DNA of 32,000 nt from Cellvibrio chitinivorans. Its GTDB lineage: Bacteria > Pseudomonadota > Gammaproteobacteria > Pseudomonadales > Cellvibrionaceae. A program made the position numbers and the translations under genes. The DNA lies in the NCBI RefSeq assembly GCF_035117775.1, contig NZ_JAYKKN010000008.1:37749-69748 (forward strand), in the 5' to 3' direction. Positions 3,035 to 23,690 of the stretch are shown piece after piece. Position 1 is the stretch's first letter, and each line of letters starts with the position of its first letter. The notes under the pieces are model-generated. The model saw only the letters and a list, made by a program, of their open reading frames with translations. It had not been told where the DNA came from and made no database searches.

Positions 3035-5074
3035 ATGAAAACACTCCCCAAACTTTTGTTTGCTTGTTTGCTATCCCCGTTAGTTTCTATTCCTGTACAT
3101 GCACAAACGGCATTTGTGCATTTATTTGAATGGCAATGGAATGACATCGCATCCGAATGCGAAAATGTTCTAGCTCCGAAAGGTTACGCCGCGGTACAAG
3201 TATCGCCACCGCAAAAATCCGTGAGCGGAAATGCTTGGTGGACACGCTATCAACCTGTGAGTTATTCCATTGAAGGTCGCTCTGGTACACGCGCAGAATT
3301 TGCAAGTATGGTTGCGCGCTGTAAGGCCGTAGGTGTTGATATTTATGTCGATGCTGTTATCAATCACATGTCCGCAGGTAATCGTAACTTCCCTGAAGTG
3401 CCTTACGGCACAAATGATTTTCATAGCTGTACCAGCAATATTGATTACACCAATGCATGGCAAGTTCAAAATTGTGATTTGGTTGGATTAAATGATTTAA
3501 AAACCGAATCTGATTATGTACGCGGAAAAATCGCTGCTTATCTAAATGATTTATCCAGCATGGGCGTTGCGGGTTTTCGCTTCGATGCAGCCAAACATAT
3601 TCCCCACGGCGATATCGCCAACATTGTCAGTCGGTTAAATGGATCACCTTATATTTTTCAGGAAGTAATTGGCGCAGCTAATGAACCAATTACGCCGGCG
3701 CAATATACTTATATCGGCGACGTAACCGAATTTAATTTCACCAATACAATCGGGCATTACTTTAAAGGTCGCGCGCAATTAAAAGATTTGCGCAACATAG
3801 GCACCTGGAGTGGCTGGGTTCCGAGCAGCGATGCAGTTGTATTTGTCGCAAACCACGATAACCAACGTCAAAACACCGCCAATACAATCACGCATAAAGA
3901 TGGCATGAACGTTAATAACATTGCGCATGTATTTACACTGGCATTTCCCTACGGTTATCCAAAAGTAATGTCCAGTTATGACTGGAGCGATCACGACCAA
4001 GGCCCACCAAGCAGCGGCGCAAGCGCCTGTAATAACGGCTGGCTGTGTGAACATCGCAACCGTGAAATTGCCAATATGGTTGGCTTTCGCAACGCCACTA
4101 AAGACGCATTTTATTTATCCAATTGGTGGGACAACGGCGCAAACCAAATTGCATTTGGGCGCGGCAGCCTCGGCTTTGTTGTCATCAACGGTGAAAACAA
4201 CAGCATGAGCGTGACACTGCAAACCGGTTTGGCCGCAGGTAGCTATTGCAATGTGATTGCCGGTGATTTTGTTAACGGTAGTTGCACAGGCAGCAGTATT
4301 ACTGTTGCTGCTGATGGCACAGCAACATTTAATGTTGCAGCAAAAAGTGCAGCCGCTATTCACGTGCAAGCAAAAAACGGCACTGTAACAGGCAACAACT
4401 GTGTTTACTCTTCCATGAAAATGCGCGGCACTTTTAATAACTGGAGCAGTACTGATATGAATTGCGCCAGCGGTATTTGGGTTGGCAGCGCAACCTTTAG
4501 CGGGAGCAGCACGGATCGTTTTAAGTTCGATGCCTACGGCAACTGGGTTAATAACTGGGGCAACAACAACAGCGATTTAATTGCAGATGCGGGTGGTAAT
4601 GATATTGCTGTAACAACCGCAGGCACCTACAACATCACTTTTAATGATGCGAGCTTGCAATATTCAATTACACCAACCACTGCCAGTAGCTCTGCTCCAT
4701 CGAGCACAGCAAGTAGCGCCTCATCATTCACAGCAAGCAGTGCAAATAACTCAAGCGCAGCATCCAGCTCTGTATCGGCGAACGTTAGTGTTAACTTCAC
4801 CTGCCAAAACGGTATAACCTATAACGGACAAAGTGTTTATGTCACAGGCAATCACGCAACACTCGGCAACTGGGCTCCAGCTTCTGCGATAAAACTTTCA
4901 CCCACGAGCTATCCGACCTGGACAGGCACAATTCAGTTACCCGCGAACACTGCAATTGAATGGAAATGTGTGAAGCGCGAAGAAAATAATGCAGCGGCAG
5001 GTGTGGTATGGGAAAGTGGCAGCAATAATTCTCTGAACACCGCAACTGCAACCACCACGCTGGGCGCATTCTAA
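3035..5074 (+). CDS. Secreted modular GH13 alpha-amylase: catalytic domain, an unassigned beta-sandwich module, a Ser-rich linker and a C-terminal CBM20-like starch-binding module
   Basis: The four GH13 regions are present: DAVINHM, GFRFDAAKHI, FQEVI, FVANHDNQR. The N-terminus FVHLFEWQWNDIASECE...GYAAVQVSPP closely resembles chloride-dependent animal-type and Pseudoalteromonas amylases. There is a signal peptide ending VHAQ. The C-terminus GQSVYVTGN..LGNW...WTGTIQLP...IEWKCVKRE is CBM20-like. Confidence 0.95.
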   Translation: MKTLPKLLFACLLSPLVSIPVHAQTAFVHLFEWQWNDIASECENVLAPKGYAAVQVSPPQKSVSGNAWWTRYQPVSYSIEGRSGTRAEFASMVARCKAVGVDIYVDAVINHMSAGNRNFPEVPYGTNDFHSCTSNIDYTNAWQVQNCDLVGLNDLKTESDYVRGKIAAYLNDLSSMGVAGFRFDAAKHIPHGDIANIVSRLNGSPYIFQEVIGAANEPITPAQYTYIGDVTEFNFTNTIGHYFKGRAQLKDLRNIGTWSGWVPSSDAVVFVANHDNQRQNTANTITHKDGMNVNNIAHVFTLAFPYGYPKVMSSYDWSDHDQGPPSSGASACNNGWLCEHRNREIANMVGFRNATKDAFYLSNWWDNGANQIAFGRGSLGFVVINGENNSMSVTLQTGLAAGSYCNVIAGDFVNGSCTGSSITVAADGTATFNVAAKSAAAIHVQAKNGTVTGNNCVYSSMKMRGTFNNWSSTDMNCASGIWVGSATFSGSSTDRFKFDAYGNWVNNWGNNNSDLIADAGGNDIAVTTAGTYNITFNDASLQYSITPTTASSSAPSSTASSASSFTASSANNSSAASSSVSANVSVNFTCQNGITYNGQSVYVTGNHATLGNWAPASAIKLSPTSYPTWTGTIQLPANTAIEWKCVKREENNAAAGVVWESGSNNSLNTATATTTLGAF

Positions 5075-12278: not shown

Positions 12279-13016
12279 CTACAAATCTATACTCAGGCTT
12301 TCTAGTGAAACAACACGACTCATTAAAACTTTTTGCTCAACAACAGAAATATTACCAAGTGCAGCGTGAATGAAATTTATTATATTTGGAATATCGGCAT
12401 CTGACTTTACAAAAATATAACGTATGTCACCTGGCCCAAATTTAATCGTACAATTTTCTTTAGTTAAAGAGTTCTCAATATCCAAATTGTCTTTATTTTC
12501 AAACTTTGACTTTCTTATATATGGCTTAATTTCCTCATGTTGTGGAACATAGCGCCATTCAGATTCTTGATAAAATTCTTTTTCTACAGGAACCCCATCG
12601 ATAACCATTTTCCCACTAGTTGGTTTTGTGTATGCAAGCAAATACCTCATGGTTGTCTTGCATAACTCGATATCTTCACCCTCTAATTTGTTGGAGTGAT
12701 CATTTAGGCCTCTAAACGAATTTGTTAGATTGTTATTTCCTGCGCTATAGAGAATTGGATTCAAACCATTCAGATGACCCCACTGCCTAGTAAGACCTAA
12801 TCCAAACTCACCGTAAAACCCTATATGCTCAGAAATTCTTGATAGCGGAATGTCACAAAAGCAAACCATTGGGTACGCAATATAGTCGAACTTATCGTAT
12901 CCGAGCCAGCTTATGTCTTCTAAACAATAACGAGGCCAAAAGCCATGTTCCAAGATTAATTTCAGAGTTTCTATGTTCTTGGTAAAATGAAAAAGCGTAT
13001 TTGATTTCGGTCGCAT
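12279..13016 (-). CDS. AbiGi-like (abortive-infection family) protein on a low-GC islet, with no AbiGii partner
   Basis: The N-terminus NTLFHFTKNIETLKLILEHGFWPRYCLED and the strings YPMVCFCDIPLSRISEHIGFYGEFGLGLTRQWGHLNGLNPILY match my recollection of the AbiGi (PF10899) pattern. I prefer the ATG at 13016 (GAGGAAATT-ATG) to the track's 13058, which has no Shine-Dalgarno sequence. Two 60-nt samples I counted were 32-33% G+C. Confidence 0.65.
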   Translation of the reverse strand: MRPKSNTLFHFTKNIETLKLILEHGFWPRYCLEDISWLGYDKFDYIAYPMVCFCDIPLSRISEHIGFYGEFGLGLTRQWGHLNGLNPILYSAGNNNLTNSFRGLNDHSNKLEGEDIELCKTTMRYLLAYTKPTSGKMVIDGVPVEKEFYQESEWRYVPQHEEIKPYIRKSKFENKDNLDIENSLTKENCTIKFGPGDIRYIFVKSDADIPNIINFIHAALGNISVVEQKVLMSRVVSLESLSIDL

Positions 13017-13292
13017 AATTTCCTCAAATGTCCTAACTCCGAAGCAGTTTTTCTGCATCCATATTATTTATTTGTTATGAGCTTTTGTAAGCACGGAATT
13101 TTTTAAGTGTTAACCTTGATATTTCCAATGTTCTCCCTCCAATAGCCCTTCAGCTTGTTGATGTTCGCAAGCTCAGCCTGCAAGGCCCGCCGCAACCTAC
13201 GGGTACATTAGCTACGAAAATTCAATTAAAGACTATGAATGAATTTACCGCCAGCCGGAATTACAGGTTATTACCTTGCGATATTTGAGTGG

Positions 13293-14724: not shown

Positions 14725-14764
14725 TCCTGAGTTAAAGGGCGGGAATGTTTCCCGCCGATTTCAA

Positions 14765-14801
14765 GAGCAATGTCCCGAGTTAACTCTGACCGCTTCTACT
14801 C
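14765..14801 (-). promoter_or_regulatory. Candidate riboswitch aptamer copy A (NMT1-motif / xanthine-class candidate) in the amidohydrolase leader
   Basis: The minus-strand sequence is GAGTAGAAGCGGTCAGAGTTAACTCGGGACATTGCTC. It shares its 5' and 3' boxes with copies B and C. It is followed by the hairpin GGCGGGAA-ACA-TTCCCGCC, then AGGAG and the ATG. Confidence 0.6.
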
Positions 14802-15088
14802 TTACTACCTTTATTAATAACATTGAATTTTGCTTACGCCAAGACAATAACAGCATGAGAAAAATAAAATACAATTTGGTGCAAAGCAGAATTTTAAGCG
14901 TATTTTTTTGGTGCAAGAGCAATAAAAAATCTGGCTTTAGGGAAGCAGATATAAATAGAAAATTTATTAAAAACTTCTTATCGCATCTATAGTTAGCCTT
15001 AGCTACGCCATCAGTTTCCGCGGCTGGCATAAGGTTTGCTAAAACTTAAACGAACCCGATATTTTTTGATTTTTGAATATCGGGTATT

Positions 15089-15139
15089 GAGTAGAAGCTG
15101 TTAGGTAACTCTCTTTTACGAGAAACCGGGACATTGCTC
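15089..15139 (+). promoter_or_regulatory. Candidate riboswitch aptamer copy B in the leader of the ABC operon
   Basis: The sequence is GAGTAGAAGCTGTTAGGTAACTCTCTTTTACGAGAAACCGGGACATTGCTC. Its first 10 nt and last 12 nt are identical to copy A. The inner helix changes GAG/CTC to GGT/ACC, which is compensatory. Confidence 0.6.
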
Positions 15140-15305
15140 ATTGTTCATACGTCGCAGCCTTGTGGGCTTATAGCAACGTGTGGCGATGAGATAAGCTTCT
15201 CCCCCGCCACTACCCCTCTGCTATAAAACTCCACTTCAAGCTTCGACCTTACAACATTGATTTTGCGCAGGCATTGCTCTGCGCATCTGTGTAATGGAGA
15301 AAGCG

Positions 15306-17188: not shown

Positions 17189-17986
17189 ATGAGAAGCCCA
17201 ATGAAAATACTCTGCTCCCAGTATTTAACGCAACTACAGAAGTTATTGCCCTTGATGGCATTGCTCGCACTGATTCCCTTATGGCAATTGTGTTGTTGGT
17301 TATTTTCGATTCCCGAATTTATTTTGCCATCGCCCAGCACTATCGCTCACGCATTTTTTGAGGTGGACGCAGTGCGTTGGTTGGAACATGCATGGGCCAC
17401 CTTAAAAATTGCTCTCATTGGTTTTGCGCTATCGATAATGTTAAGTATTCCCTTGGCGATAATGATGGTGCGCTCTGCTTTTTTGACGAAGACCTTGTTT
17501 CCGCTATTAATTATTGTGCAGTCCACACCGGTGGTTGCGATTGCACCATTGTTAATTGTAATTCTGGGTGCAGGCGATGCCCCGCGTTTGGCAATTACGT
17601 GTTTAATTACCTTCTTTCCACTTGTGGTTTCTGCCACCACGGGTATGTTGGCTACACCACCAGAATTAATTGAACTTTCCAAATCCCTGCGCGCATCACC
17701 GGTAAAAGAAATTTGGCAGATTCGCCTGCCCTATGCCATCCCACATATTTTTAGCGGACTAAAAGTTGCCATTACCTTAGCGGTAATCGGTGCAGTGATA
17801 GCGGAGTTTGTCGCGGCCGAACAGGGGCTTGGATATTTTGTGCAATTCTCCACGTCGTTTTTTAAAGTGCCGCAAGCCTTTGCCGCTTTGCTTTTATTAT
17901 CGGCGATCAGTCTTTCGCTTTTTGCGCTTGTGCAATGGACCCAAAAAATCTGGTTTGCCTGGAGCTTACCGCGCGACAAAATGTAA
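17189..17986 (+). CDS. ABC transporter permease (NitT/TauT family)
   Basis: The 265-aa protein has about 6 hydrophobic segments and an EAA-like loop (ELSKSLRASPVKEIWQIRLPYAIPHIFSGLK). Confidence 0.85.
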   Translation: MRSPMKILCSQYLTQLQKLLPLMALLALIPLWQLCCWLFSIPEFILPSPSTIAHAFFEVDAVRWLEHAWATLKIALIGFALSIMLSIPLAIMMVRSAFLTKTLFPLLIIVQSTPVVAIAPLLIVILGAGDAPRLAITCLITFFPLVVSATTGMLATPPELIELSKSLRASPVKEIWQIRLPYAIPHIFSGLKVAITLAVIGAVIAEFVAAEQGLGYFVQFSTSFFKVPQAFAALLLLSAISLSLFALVQWTQKIWFAWSLPRDKM

Positions 17987-18014
17987 CTTTACATAGCAAC
18001 CCCAAAAAACCGCG

Positions 18015-18072
18015 GAGTAGAAGCGGCGATTGGAAAATACCGGCATTCGCTATTTTCCGATTGGCATTGCTC
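18015..18072 (+). promoter_or_regulatory. Candidate riboswitch aptamer copy C, intercistronic between the permease and oxygenase genes
   Basis: The sequence is GAGTAGAAGCGG-CGATTGGAAAATA-ccggcattcgc-TATTTTCCGATTG-GCATTGCTC. The same outer boxes enclose a 13-bp helix that includes 2 G.U pairs. It is followed by a short GC hairpin (GCAGC-AGC-GCTGC) plus TTTATTTAT, then GGAG and the ATG at 18114. Confidence 0.55.
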
Positions 18073-18113
18073 CATTTCCAGCAGCAGCGCTGCTTTATTT
18101 ATGGAGTTTTACA

Positions 18114-19136
18114 ATGAGCAATATCAATACAAACACCAACACTACAAGTCCGTACGATTTACAAGAGTTGCAATTTGAAAGCACACTTGGTGGCATGGGC
18201 ATTGAAAATGATGCATTACAAATTCCACTGATTGACCTCAGCAACTTCAGTGAGCGACGAGCCGAAATCACCGAACAGTTATGGGCAGCAGCAACCCAAG
18301 TGGGATTTTTTCAGTTGCAACATCATGGGTTGGATTTGACTTTGATTGAATCCACCTTTGCTCAAGCAAAAGCATTTTTTGAATTGCCCAATGCGGATAA
18401 AAAAGCCTATCCCCTTAAAGAGGGTTTGAATGCAGGCTGGGAATTTATGGAGCAGGTTCGTCCATCAACTGGCACTGCCGATCAAAAAGAATCCTATCAA
18501 GTCACCTTGCCGCACATGGACAACTTATGGCCGCAAGAATTGCCCATGTTTCACTCCATCATTCTCGAATTTGAAAAACGTGCGTGGCAATTGGGCATGG
18601 ATGTGCTCTCCTGCTTTGCCGATAAGCTTGGATTTGAGCGCGACTTTTTTAGCCGTGTACACAAACGAGAATCAGCACAGTACCAAAGCACACTACGCTT
18701 ACTGCATTATTTGCCAATGAAAGATTCGCTGCATCAGGAAGGAATTTGGCGTGCTGGCGCCCATACCGATTTTGATTGCCTGACAATGGTATTTCAAAAA
18801 GACGGTCAAGGTGGCTTACAAGTCTGCGGCGGAAAAACGGCCACAGAACAACAGGCATGGAGCAATGTCATTCCGCGCACAGATATCATCACCTGCAATA
18901 TTGGCGACATGCTCATGCGCTGGAGTGACGATCAATTAAAATCCACTCTGCATCGCGTGCGTATGCCTCAAGCTCATGAATATCAAGGCCCGCGCTACAG
19001 CCTCGCATTTTTTTGTCAGGCCAATAAAGATGTAATTATTCAAGGCCCGCAAAAAAAATACGAACCCATCTCTGCTGCCGACTTTTTACGCAAGCGTATT
19101 AACGCGAATTTTGCCGAAATACAGGAAAAAAAATAA
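18114..19136 (+). CDS. 2-oxoglutarate/Fe(II)-dependent oxygenase (isopenicillin-N-synthase-like family)
   Basis: The facial triad and 2OG site are present: GAHTDFDCLT (HxD), LKSTLHRV (distal His) and RYSLAFF (RxS). An N-terminal DIOX_N-like string is IPLIDLS. The track's 18030 start is a TTG; I prefer the ATG at 18114, which is preceded by GGAG. Confidence 0.85.
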   Translation: MSNINTNTNTTSPYDLQELQFESTLGGMGIENDALQIPLIDLSNFSERRAEITEQLWAAATQVGFFQLQHHGLDLTLIESTFAQAKAFFELPNADKKAYPLKEGLNAGWEFMEQVRPSTGTADQKESYQVTLPHMDNLWPQELPMFHSIILEFEKRAWQLGMDVLSCFADKLGFERDFFSRVHKRESAQYQSTLRLLHYLPMKDSLHQEGIWRAGAHTDFDCLTMVFQKDGQGGLQVCGGKTATEQQAWSNVIPRTDIITCNIGDMLMRWSDDQLKSTLHRVRMPQAHEYQGPRYSLAFFCQANKDVIIQGPQKKYEPISAADFLRKRINANFAEIQEKK

Positions 19137-19213: not shown

Positions 19214-21448
19214 TTATTTCAACACCCGGCTTGAACTCGCAGGATGCCAAGGTTCAGGCACATAGTGTGTACGCGCTTTCGCTTTGTAGTATTCCAAATC
19301 GTGCTCGGGTTTTTCGTAACCGGCAGGAATTGCTTTGCCGGAAAAAGTTTGGAAGTAAAGCACACAGGAATCGCGCCATTGCACTGCATCGCGCTCTTGT
19401 ACTTGCAGCAGCGCTTTGACTTGTTCAAAACGTTCGGCATCGATAAAAGGTTTGGCGCTTTCCCACTCACGCTGCATACTGCGCACCTGATCTACACCTT
19501 CATAATATTTATGAACTAACTCTTCCCACAAGCTGCGACCAGATTTCATTTTGTGATCCCAGCTTACATGATGAAACCACAGCATTAACTCTTCTGGTAC
19601 GGCATTGATATCGCCATATTGCTTCATTAATGGTGTTGGATACTGGGCGATAGCATTAGAGCCAGTTTTAGTGCGATCAAAACCAATACCGTCTTTACTT
19701 GCGCGGTGATAATAGATGGCCGTCCAATCCGGACGCTCAGAATTTTCGAGCCAAGGTGAAGGGCCGTAGTGATCACCTTGCGAATACAAATGGGTTAAAC
19801 CTAAAGGCGAGCGGTAATTCACTCCCGCTTCACGCGAATACATCATTAATTTTTTAACCGGTGCGATAAATTTTTCGTCGTTAGAGAATGTCATACGCAA
19901 CCACTCTTCAGCAGCCGCTTCGGCTGAAACATTGTGATCCCACGCCATGCGCCCAAATGCGTACCAGCTCGACTGTACGAAAGGGTGCCCAGTCCAGTTG
20001 CGATCAGTGCCTGGGTTAATCACCGCCGCCATGCCTGTATGCTTGCTGCTATTTTCTTTATCTACACCAAATACTTTGCCTTCGAGAATATTGCCAATCG
20101 TTGAACCCTCGCCTTTTGCATAGGTTTCTGTGCGCAGCGATTCTTCAAATAGTGACCCTTGATAAGCAAGGTGCGTAGCGAAGCCAAAATATTCTTGCGT
20201 GACTTGAAACTCCATCATCATGTGAGTTTTTTCCATCGCGGAAAAAAGTGATGAATAGGGTTCGCGCGGTTGAAAATCGATGGGGCCGTTTTTCACTTGC
20301 AGAATTACGTTATCGGCAAATTTTCCATCGAGCGGTTTGAATTCATCGTAAGAGCCGCGAAAGCGATCACCAATATCCGGGTGATATACAAATGCGCGCC
20401 AGAACACTACGCCACCAAAGGGTTTTAATGCAGCGGCAAGCATGTTGGCGCCATCAGCATGATTGCGACCATAATCTTGCGGCCCGGGCTGACCTTCAGA
20501 ATTTGCCTTTACTAAATAGCCACCAAAATCGGGAATATATTCGTACACTTTTTTGGTGCGCTCTTGCCACCATTTTGCAACGCGAGGATCGAGTGGGTCG
20601 GCAATATCCAAATCGCCAAAAGCGCGCGGCGAATTGTAGTTAATCGACAAATACACTTTGATGCCGTAAGGGCGAAATACATCAGCCAGCGCAGCAATTT
20701 TTTGCAGAAATTGATCGCTCAACAAACGCGGATCGGCATTTACATTGTTAATCACTGTGCCGTTAATACCGAGTGAGGCATTGATGCGCGCATAGTCGGT
20801 ATAGCGTGGAGATTTATAATCCGGCAGCGTGCCCCAATCCCACAGCGATAAGCCTGCATAGCCGCGTTCTACCACGCGATTAACATTATCCCAATGATTC
20901 ACTACGCGGTGCTGCAATTTAGGTGCACTACTAATAGCAATGTTAGCGATGGATTGCTGTGTTTGAATTAAACGTAAAAGATGAAAACTGCCGTAGAGCA
21001 CACCCACATCGGAATTAGCGGCAATCACCGTCACATCGCGTTTATTAATACGCGTCTGTTCAATTAAATAACCTTCATTACCTACTGACGCCAAGCGTTG
21101 CGACAAATTCAATGAGGCAATTAAGGGCGAGTTGGCGGGCGTTCCAATCACTAATGACTGAGCTTGCAGTTTCCCTGTTGCACTTGCAATCGGCTTGGCT
21201 AACAAGCCACTCAAGCCGCGCTGCAGCTCATCTGTGGCTGCCACTATCGTAGATGAGCGCCCTTCAGCTACCAGATAGCGAATTTGCTTTTGATATACCT
21301 TGCGTGTAGCGGAGTCACTCACCGGTTGGTAGCGCAGCCACATTTCGTAGCCATCTTCAGCCAGCACACTTGCTGTACCTGTACACAACCAGATTGTTGC
21401 AAAAATGAATAATTTGGAGAAAAAAGATCTATGCACACTCAACCCCAC
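19214..21448 (-). CDS. aguA: GH67 alpha-glucuronidase
   Basis: The 744-aa protein has a signal peptide followed by [10 protein letters not shown], a characteristic GH67 N-terminus. Its length and conserved blocks ([35 protein letters not shown]) fit GH67. The start codon is GTG. Confidence 0.93.
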
Positions 21449-22535: not shown

Positions 22536-23690
22536 ATGAACAAATTAAACTCGTTAACGCTTTCGCGCCGACAATTATTAGCCGCGACTGGCGCTGGTGC
22601 AGCACTTATTGCCAGCGCCAAAATGCAGGCAGCCGAAAAAGCAATGGCAGCTACAGGCTTAAAAGAAGCCTATAAAAATGATTTTCTGATCGGTGCAGCA
22701 CTTAATGTCAATATCATCGCGCAGCAAGAGCCCAAGTTAACAACGCTTATTGCCAGGGAATTTAATTCCATCACCGCAGAAAACTGTCAAAAATGGGGCG
22801 AAATTCGCAATGAAGATGGCAGCTGGAAATGGAGTGATAGCGATGCGTTTGTTAATTACGGTATAAAAAACAAGATGCACATTGTCGGTCATACACTTGG
22901 CTGGCACAGCCAAATTCCCGATAGCGTATTTAAAAATAAAGATGGTAGTTACATTTCCAAAGAAGCGCTGGCAAAAAAACAGCAAGAGCACATCACTACC
23001 TTAGTTGAGCGCTACAAAGGAAAAATTGCCGCATGGGATGTTGTCAATGAAGCAATGGGCGATGATTACAAAATGCGCCCAAGTCACTGGTACAACATTA
23101 TGGGCGATGACTTTTTAGTGAACGCCTTTAATCTCGCTCACGAAGTCGATCCCAAAGCACATTTGATGTACAACGACTACAACAACGAGCGCCCGGAAAA
23201 ACGTGCTGCCACTATTGACATGCTCAAACGTTTACAAAAACTCGGCGCGCCTATTCACGGACTGGGAATGCAAGCGCATGTTGGTTTGGATTCTGACATG
23301 CAAAACTTTGAAGACAGCATTCTCGCCTACTCTAAATTAGGCTTACGCATTCATCTCACCGAATTGGATATAGATGTGTTGCCATCGGTATGGAATTTAC
23401 CCGTAGCAGAAATCTCTACCCGCTTTGAATATAAGCCGGAGCGCGATCCCTACATCAATGGATTACCAAAAGAAATTGAAGAAAAACTCGCCAAAGCCTA
23501 TGAAACTCTGTTTAAAATTTTAATTAAACACAAAGATAAAGTAGATCGTGTTACCTTCTGGGGAGTTAGTGATGACGCAAGCTGGCTAAATGGTTTCCCG
23601 ATTCCAGGGCGCACCAATTACCCACTGCTGTTTGATCGCCAACAACAACCGAAATCTGCATACTTCCGGCTGTTAGACCTTAAAAAATAG
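22536..23690 (+). CDS. GH10 endo-1,4-beta-xylanase with a Tat signal
   Basis: The twin-arginine signal is LSRRQLLAATGAGAALIASAKMQAAE. The acid/base catalytic region is WDVVNEA and the nucleophile region is HLTELDIDV. Confidence 0.93.
   Translation: MNKLNSLTLSRRQLLAATGAGAALIASAKMQAAEKAMAATGLKEAYKNDFLIGAALNVNIIAQQEPKLTTLIAREFNSITAENCQKWGEIRNEDGSWKWSDSDAFVNYGIKNKMHIVGHTLGWHSQIPDSVFKNKDGSYISKEALAKKQQEHITTLVERYKGKIAAWDVVNEAMGDDYKMRPSHWYNIMGDDFLVNAFNLAHEVDPKAHLMYNDYNNERPEKRAATIDMLKRLQKLGAPIHGLGMQAHVGLDSDMQNFEDSILAYSKLGLRIHLTELDIDVLPSVWNLPVAEISTRFEYKPERDPYINGLPKEIEEKLAKAYETLFKILIKHKDKVDRVTFWGVSDDASWLNGFPIPGRTNYPLLFDRQQQPKSAYFRLLDLKK

Follow-up and report, generated by a model that had tools for sequence, protein, structure and literature searches.

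The window (the whole 32,000-nucleotide stretch of Cellvibrio chitinivorans DNA that was analyzed) contains a minus-strand amidohydrolase gene and, divergent from it, an operon encoding a substrate-binding protein, an ABC ATPase, a permease and a 2OG-Fe(II) dioxygenase (Table 1). This set of genes, including the divergently oriented adjacent RNA copies, is the one described for the NMT1 motif (Yu & Breaker, PMC7373994). The nearest solved relative of the dioxygenase is the fungal thymine dioxygenase 5c3p (E = 3e-29); NCBIfam holds no model for it. The locus carries three copies of a two-box motif, here termed A, B and C, the third of which lies in the 127-nt gap (17987–18113) that separates the permease stop codon from the dioxygenase start codon.

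Table 1. Genes, motif copies and structural elements of copy C in the window.
Feature	Position	Strand	Remarks
PRK12393 amidohydrolase		-	NCBIfam equivalog, 624 bits
Copy A, standard xanthine riboswitch	14760–14806	-	Upstream of the PRK12393 amidohydrolase; RF03054, 55.6 bits
Copy B, standard xanthine riboswitch	15084–15144	+	Heads the SBP-ATPase-permease-dioxygenase operon; RF03054, 41.5 bits
NMT1-type substrate-binding protein (SBP)		+	Pfam
ABC ATPase		+	Pfam
Permease	17189–17986	+	Pfam; stop codon TAA at 17984–17986
Copy C aptamer	18014–18073	+	Between the permease and dioxygenase genes
P1 5' strand GGAGUA	18014–18019	+	Shine-Dalgarno-like; partner 18068–18073; P1 paired in 100% of cells over 22 sequences; P1 register also given by the covariance-model alignment
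J1 5' strand GAAGCG	18020–18025	+	Crystal G7 A8 A9 G10 C11 G12; ligand-pocket and A-minor nucleotides
P2a 5' strand	18026–18027	+	2 bp (G-C, C-G; standard, 3 bp); partner 18064–18065; GC 22/22, CG 22/22
J2 5' nucleotide G	18028	+	Equivalent of A16; column is A or G across the short-type family
P2b hairpin	18029–18061	+	11 bp (18029–18039 with 18051–18061) and an 11-nt loop; unusually long for the family
J2 3' bulge U-G	18062–18063	+	G18063 is the G35 equivalent, candidate partner of C11 (C18024) in the long-range pair
P2a 3' strand G-C and J1 3' A39 U40	18064–18067	+	18064–18065 and 18066–18067; invariant GGCATTGCTCC
P1 3' strand UGCUCC	18068–18073	+	CUCC doubles as anti-Shine-Dalgarno sequence
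Anti-SD arm CUCCAU	18070–18075	+	Pairs with AUGGAG 18101–18106 (MFE fold, duplex energy, covariation)
Capping hairpin AGCAGC-AGC-GCUGCU	18080–18094	+	Within the sequestering helix; conserved in L089
SD arm AUGGAG	18101–18106	+	GGAG at 18103–18106, 7 nt upstream of the ATG; pairing predicted
2OG-Fe(II) dioxygenase	18114–19136	+	PcbC/isopenicillin-N-synthase family; Pfam DIOX_N and 2OG-FeII_Oxy; predicted target of copy C

The pattern GAGTAGAAGC-N15-45-CATTGCTC occurs three times in the window and in none of 100 dinucleotide-preserving shuffles, which excludes a chance origin. Copy C (18015–18072) reads GAGTAGAAGCGG CGATTGGAAAATA ccggcattcgc TATTTTCCGATTG GCATTGCTC, of which GAGTAGAAGCGG is the 5' box; this 12-nt box and the 3' box CATTGCTC are identical to those of copy A. 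Downstream follow the hairpin sequence GCAGC-AGC-GCTGC (18081–18093), then TTTATTTAT, GGAG and the ATG. All of these elements are present as an earlier sequence-only reading had described them, and its view of copy C as a third structure-constrained copy of one purine-sensing motif is supported. The same reading had proposed that an intercistronic copy could gate the dioxygenase apart from the transporter; copy C is indeed so placed, within the permease–dioxygenase gap and 41 nt upstream of the DIOX_N/2OG-FeII_Oxy gene. No promoter-like site was found in this gap.

At the gathering threshold of Rfam only copies A and B are reported, and copy C is absent. A permissive local search over 201 nt with RF03054 gives copy C 25.3 bits (E = 9e-4), with P1, J1 and the 3' box matched and all of P2 taken as inserted sequence. 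Since this score lies below the gathering score of 36 bits, the covariance-model search suggested in the sequence-only reading misses copy C at the curated threshold.

We fetched 80 loci around orthologs of the dioxygenase (56–70% identity) and scanned them for the two boxes. At 21 loci, directly upstream of the dioxygenase gene, we found the arrangement GAAGCGG-C-[A/G]-stem-loop-stem-N-G-G-CAUUGCUCC, which is the standard motif minus the U14–A37 pair of P2a. We refer to this form as the short type. In a structure-blind MAFFT alignment of 22 sequences, all pocket positions are invariant or nearly so, including the equivalents of G35, G36 and C38, which the retrieval regular expression had left free. 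The family structure is paired in 92.7% of alignment cells, compared with 32–52% for slid partners, and P2b contains 33 double-sided changes, a count that none of 500 shuffles equals (11.8 ± 3.7), with such changes in all five counted P2b pairs.

A leave-one-out covariance model, trained on 21 short-type copies from other genomes with the window excluded, scores copy C in the family register at 43.0 bits (E of about 1e-8 over 32 kb), copy A at 30.8 bits and copy B at 15.8 bits; when copy A is aligned to this model, its extra u...a pair shows as insertions. Once the window is added to the model, its 22 members reach 46.9–61.7 bits, and no standard copy in 868 kb exceeds 38 bits. Rfam scores were checked in 14 short-type copies (13 loci and the window), two of which reach the cutoff, at 36.9 bits each; sub-cutoff copies with a reported RF03054 score fall between 25.3 and 31.5 bits, and the siblings of copy C span 25.8–36.9 bits. 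Some B-type copies in the marine genomes examined are also below the Rfam threshold. In the published Stockholm alignment, with about 600 rows, GAAGCGGUCAG occurs as a contiguous string 116 times, and there is a single short-type row (NZ_KB822693.1), which is forced in with gaps. The curated model and the published alignment thus largely miss a gene-specific sub-family, and annotation pipelines will under-call it.

Measured against the features of the xanthine-I class, copy C has the P1 strands GAGUA/UGCUC, the pocket formed by J1 (GAAGCG) and A39 U40 (AU at 18066–18067), a variable and covarying P2b, and a location upstream of purine-oxidation and transport genes. It lacks the 3-bp P2a, the U14–A37 pair being absent from all 22 short-type copies. 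P2a is naturally variable across the class (GUC/GAC, UUC/GAA, GCU/GGC), and the short-P2a sub-type is best seen as an undescribed flavor of the known class, not as a new class. In the literature after 2020 we found nothing on sub-types, polarity or the substrate of the dioxygenase.

RNAs of the class are characterized by selective binding of xanthine, uric acid or 8-azaxanthine with micromolar Kd. The pocket is known from the crystal structure of Xu et al. 2021 (PMC8266621), in which xanthine is clamped by G10 and U40, with the A6–U41 pair as the floor and the C11–G35–A39 base triple as the roof. G35 is the second bulged nucleotide of J2 and reaches back over the 3-bp P2a. Binding is abolished by G35C and by both compensatory 11/35 double mutants, loss-of-binding mutants are also described for the J1 pocket nucleotides, and A16G keeps binding with a 4-fold loss (PMC8266621); the M2 mutant of Yu & Breaker affects the same G35 (PMC7373994). 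In the short type, the equivalents of A8, A9, G10 and C11 are invariant in the 22-sequence alignment, as is the G at the position of G35 (22/22), where the retrieval expression did not demand it. The shortening of P2a brings this G one base pair nearer to J1, a shift that could affect whether the C11–G35–A39 triple forms. Judged by the conservation of every pocket nucleotide, the ligand of copy C is most likely xanthine or urate.

In the family register, copy C pairs G18026 with C18065 and C18027 with G18064, leaves G18028 unpaired and bulges U18062–G18063. The sequence-only reading had instead held that copy C is without the inner loop in which an A faces GG in copies A and B. This proves mistaken: in the family register the loop is present, with G18028 opposite U18062–G18063, and what is missing is the U14–A37 pair of P2a. 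Loss of the loop, if true, would have predicted a dead aptamer, because G35 is essential. The distinct 13-bp helix with two G.U pairs that was described for copy C can form and does appear in its MFE fold, absorbing the loop into a continuous helix. As a family structure it was rejected, since the additional pair that it requires (columns 15 and 49, G18028.U18062) fails in 17 of the 22 sequences; the J2 loop is therefore real in the family. Where J2 can zip into a continuous helix, in the window and four other sequences, such zipping could weaken or abolish binding.

These features bear on the possibility that copy C is a decayed, non-binding relic whose leader retains only a constitutive SD-masking structure. 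Its sub-threshold Rfam score, the ease with which J2 is absorbed into the 13-bp helix, and a truly J2-less copy at the same position in another locus (L044) would fit such decay. However, every pocket nucleotide is intact, the G35 equivalent included, and 29 independent members of the sub-type share the core across many genera. The closest relative, the metagenome contig L089, points the same way: its permease and dioxygenase are 94% and 92% identical to those of the window, its aptamer core is 100% conserved and its platform is conserved too, with a diverged spacer 5' of the aptamer, while the substitutions in P2b are compensatory (G-C to A-U, U.G to U-A). We therefore regard a non-functional relic as highly improbable.

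The short type is tied to a single gene family. Because the locus set had been reached through the dioxygenase, metagenome contigs were scanned for the short-type DNA signature alone as a control for circularity. Of 11 matches, seven have a P1 5' strand and a P2b hairpin (42–60 bits by the independent model), and in each of the seven a dioxygenase ortholog follows immediately; the four unstructured matches score 18–25 bits and have no dioxygenase gene nearby. With the 22 genome loci, all 29 short-type members are dioxygenase-proximal. Among matches on genome contigs the best reaches 70% identity. The sequence-only reading had singled out orthologous operons as a place where absence of the intercistronic element would count against it; a motif is present in the gap of all 37 permease–dioxygenase operons examined, 14 of these copies being of the short type (gaps of 92–192 nt). 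Short-type copies are also found in two SBP–dioxygenase gaps and, immediately behind a standard copy, as the second member of a tandem (6 genome loci and 2 in metagenomes).

The region between the aptamer and the dioxygenase start codon was examined as an expression platform. The MFE fold of 18008–18125 (-39.5 kcal/mol) pairs the 3' strand of P1 with the SD region, leaving the SD with an unpaired probability of at most 0.05, and the helix is extended by CAUUG (18065–18069) paired with CAAUG (18112–18116), in which the start codon lies. Nearly all dioxygenase leaders show the layout ...CAUUGCUCC-A(A/U)U...hairpin...A(A/U)U-GGAG... Duplexes between the P1 3' strand and the SD average -10.2 kcal/mol, compared with -4.9 kcal/mol in shuffles, and are better than shuffles in 28 of 28 short-type leaders (p = 7e-9). 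An anchored, ungapped pseudo-alignment of this pairing over the same 28 leaders is paired in 74% of cells (32–58% when slid) and contains 37 double-sided changes against 25.9 ± 3.4 (1 of 500 shuffles), with a covariation score that none of 500 shuffles reaches; here the CUCC:GGAG complementarity is partly forced, as both strings are conserved for other reasons, so that only the positions flanking them are informative.

The sequence-only reading had offered two roles for the hairpin and its flanks, as a terminator or attenuator and as a platform controlling the ribosome-binding site. The second is borne out by the CUCCAU:AUGGAG helix. In the first, the hairpin at 18080–18094 and the U-rich tract behind it would terminate transcription before the dioxygenase in a ligand-dependent manner. 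A consensus scan does flag AGCAGCAGCGCTGCT and TTATTTATGG as terminator-like, and the hairpin is conserved in L089, but the scan finds two sites where 0.7 ± 0.9 are expected by chance, and the candidate consists of a stem of only 6 bp with the tail TTATTTAT, in which the U-run is interrupted. Moreover, the hairpin and the aptamer do not overlap, so that there is no antiterminator logic, and capping of the SD-sequestering helix fully accounts for the hairpin. The hairpins that stand between the two arms in other genera are variable and unrelated in sequence, and they lack a U-run; for the class itself, intrinsic terminators are reported to be almost absent in Proteobacteria (PMC7373994). Attenuation is thus very unlikely, and control by copy C most likely acts through hiding and exposure of the SD rather than through termination of transcription.

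The polarity of this control follows from the shared strand. P1 and the SD helix compete for the same CUCC, so that a P1 stabilized by ligand should expose the SD (ON). In computed folds, SD accessibility goes from 0.28 to 0.54 when P1 is imposed; it rises in 27 of 27 leaders and falls in none. Several relatives already have P1 within their MFE fold. In the window leader, forcing P1 costs about 7 kcal/mol by nearest-neighbor energies, which exclude ligand and tertiary terms, and accessibility gains little (0.10 to 0.16), as another UCCA (18077–18080) can re-pair with UGGA (18102–18105).

The opposite polarity, in which the same aptamer acts at the same translational level as an OFF switch and ligand lowers dioxygenase translation as product or end-product feedback, has the published record on its side. 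The one polarity measured for the class is OFF, a wild-type reporter being expressed below the binding-dead M4 mutant in E. coli (PMC7373994), and the window SD does stay largely paired through UCCA:UGGA when P1 is enforced. That back-up pairing is not conserved in L089, however, and complementarity between the P1 3' strand and the SD, mutually exclusive with P1, is found in all 28 leaders, in line with the uniform effect of enforced P1. The H. intermedia leader used in the OFF reporter is laid out differently. There, the SD has its complement in the 5' flank beside P1 (-10.5 versus -4.7; equaled by 1 of 200 shuffles) and not in the 3' strand of P1, a layout that is, on its sequence, an extension of P1 predicted to bury the SD when P1 forms. 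In short-type leaders the pairing of the 5' flank with the SD is no better than in shuffles (-4.0 versus -4.9). As the two leaders are laid out oppositely, the published OFF polarity need not apply to copy C. ViennaRNA folds of the GC-rich H. intermedia wild-type and M4 reporters gave no explanation for the de-repression in M4. We consider an OFF switch unlikely and favor ON for copy C on the modeled mutual exclusivity of P1 and the SD helix.

A-type amidohydrolase leaders show ON-type pairing that is weaker than in the short type (-8.7 versus -6.2 in shuffles, p = 1e-5), and the leader of copy A in the window has it at -10.9 versus -5.6. B-type leaders with long spacers show neither SD-pairing pattern. 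A second GGCATTGCTC in the copy B leader was considered as a conserved feature and dropped, being present in 1 of 24 loci.

Together, these observations lead us to propose that copy C is probably a functional short-P2a xanthine-I (NMT1) aptamer that exerts translational ON control over the dioxygenase alone. Copy C would ride on the polycistronic mRNA and control only the dioxygenase, at translation initiation. Without ligand, CAUUG-CUCCAU (18065–18075) would pair with AUGGAG (18101–18106) and CAAUG (18112–18116), forming a sequestering helix capped by the small hairpin. Binding of an oxidized purine would then lock P1 (18014–18019 with 18068–18073), pulling CUCC off the SD and allowing the dioxygenase to be translated.

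Copy C shares with the described xanthine-I/NMT1 RNAs (RF03054; PMC7373994, PMC8266621) the P1 strands GAGUA/UGCUC, the J1 sequence GAAGCG with A39–U40, and, in the family register, a P2 hairpin broken by a loop whose bulged G corresponds to G35. Further common traits are the restriction to Proteobacteria, the partner genes (PcbC-like dioxygenase, NMT1-type ABC transporter and PRK12393 amidohydrolase), the divergently oriented copies, as in H. intermedia, and control that is translational rather than terminator-based. It differs in its 2-bp P2a, in place of 3 bp, with U14–A37 deleted. The short type as a whole is further set apart by its invariable dioxygenase-proximal and often intercistronic position, and by a predicted ON logic in which the SD pairs with the 3' strand of P1, whereas in the published OFF reporter it pairs with the 5' flank.

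The add adenine riboswitch of Vibrio vulnificus is a translational ON switch in which the 3' strand of P1 has the SD and start-codon region as an alternative partner, and a ligand-stabilized P1 frees the ribosome-binding site. The regulatory logic proposed for copy C is the same, but the add RNA has an unrelated three-way-junction fold, binds another ligand and resides in a 5' UTR rather than between cistrons.

An altered ligand preference would be a further departure from the class. The short P2a could shift the ceiling of the pocket such that a different purine is recognized (for example urate, hypoxanthine, 8-oxoguanine or the dioxygenase substrate), so that the operon would respond to two different chemical inputs. 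The systematic change does adjoin the C11–G35–A39 ceiling, the sub-type is bound to a single gene family, and in at least eight loci it stands in tandem after a standard copy, an arrangement that would be redundant if ligand and affinity were equal. Variants of the guanine class, including xanthine-II, offer a precedent in which a gene-specific sub-population is set apart by a small alteration close to the pocket (PMC9295807), and in the tandem guanine–PRPP riboswitches (Sherlock 2018) two aptamers stand in series on one mRNA as they do at some short-type loci. Unlike in these variant and tandem purine riboswitches, no ligand-contacting base is changed in the short type, and the tandem partners are two flavors of one class. 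The direct xanthine contacts (G10, U40 and A6–U41) and the ceiling nucleotides are unchanged, and P2a is plastic within the class in any case. We therefore hold a switch of ligand to be improbable.

It is an equally speculative suggestion that the short-P2a RNAs constitute a distinct xanthine-I sub-class of operon-internal ON switches, possibly with a purine preference or threshold that differs from that of the standard copies preceding them. If this were true, they would be the first ON switches in a class described only as OFF, and one locus would integrate two inputs, one signal governing the transporter and deaminase and a second one the nucleobase dioxygenase. It would also indicate xanthine, urate or a close analog as the substrate of this uncharacterized, thymine hydroxylase-related dioxygenase family.

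For the reading favored here, translational ON control of the dioxygenase alone, the pertinent feature is that pairing between the 3' strand of P1 and the SD is conserved, as this indicates ON control, contrary to the class-wide statement of OFF. Such control would cast the dioxygenase as an enzyme that consumes xanthine or urate instead of producing it. The intercistronic copy C would provide a natural example of discoordinate, riboswitch-mediated control of translation within an operon. Finally, the short type indicates that the aptamer tolerates deletion of a base pair between two interacting junctions, and so offers a natural test of the long-range J1–J2 model.

The label 'OFF' for the xanthine-I class goes back to a single reporter, that of H. 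intermedia (sequence in PMC7373994 Table S2). In this construct, ACGGCA in the 5' flank adjoining the closing stem P1 can base-pair with UGCCG, which directly borders the Shine–Dalgarno sequence (−10.5 kcal/mol, versus −4.7 kcal/mol for shuffled sequences). Such a P1-extension logic is unlike that of the leaders in the present loci, so the class probably includes ON as well as OFF platforms.

Several loci (L004, L013, L023, L033, L036, L053, L081/L087, and L085) carry two xanthine aptamers in tandem, one standard and one short-P2a, before the dioxygenase gene, on the same strand and with no intervening gene. Downstream of the first aptamer in L004 comes GCAGCUGUCUGC with U6 (4858–4876), which looks like a terminator. 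No mention of tandem xanthine-I aptamers was found in the publications consulted. In Vibrio and Marinomonas loci whose dioxygenase-proximal motif is of a type other than short, the permease–dioxygenase gap is often 590–760 nt, versus 92–192 nt; the motif in these gaps may be preceded by a promoter of its own within the operon or by a further small gene, and not be strictly intercistronic.

Several copies heading the transporter operon (B-type) in marine Gammaproteobacteria score 27.6–30.3 bits, below the Rfam gathering score (RF03054, 36 bits), and the curated model seems to be generally biased against these lineages. The core of the B copies in L048 and L071 also differs (GCGUUUA...UAGAGACAUUGC). 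The permease–dioxygenase intercistronic copy of a Paraglaciecola MAG (L044, 4948–4981; GAAGCG-CUGG-UAAGG-UCAG-CAUUGC) truly lacks J2 and any equivalent of the essential bulged G35, and scores just 22.3 bits with the covariance model of short-P2a copies; it may represent decay of the motif or a minimal version of it.

Features and their coordinates in the window and in other dioxygenase loci
Feature	Locus	Position	Strand	Remark
AbiGi-domain gene	window	12279–13058	−	abortive-infection antitoxin-like; Pfam E = 3.7e-28
GH67 gene	window	19214–21448		xylan degradation; 3' of dioxygenase
GH10 gene	window	22536–23690		xylan degradation; 3' of dioxygenase
Sub-threshold B-type copy	L014	1984–2049
Sub-threshold B-type copy	L048	2213–2271
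Sub-threshold B-type copy	L026	2149–2212
Sub-threshold B-type copy	L034	2230–2269
Tandem aptamers	L004	4807–4848 and 4948–4989
Long gap, Vibrio and Marinomonas	e.g., L008, L028, L050, L066	permease end ~4400; dioxygenase ~5000

At 15265–15284 of the window, the loop of a small GCGCAG...CTGCGC hairpin contains a second 3' box, GGCATTGCTC (15270–15279), ~130 nt 3' of copy B, the aptamer heading the transporter operon, and ~16 nt 5' of the Shine–Dalgarno sequence of the SBP gene. This second box could act as a decoy or alternative partner for the 5' strand of copy B's P1; none of the 23 other B-type leaders compared contains it. The P2b loop of the intercistronic copy C holds GGCAUU (18042–18047), resembling the start of the 3' box; this is not kept in the close metagenome relative L089, and the likeness is probably coincidental.

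Turning to the genes, the AbiGi-domain gene adjoins the purine locus. The dioxygenase under putative riboswitch control (18114–19136) has no model in NCBIfam; its nearest solved structure is a fungal thymine dioxygenase (thymine-7-hydroxylase, 5c3p; E = 3e-29), a kinship that fits a nucleobase substrate.
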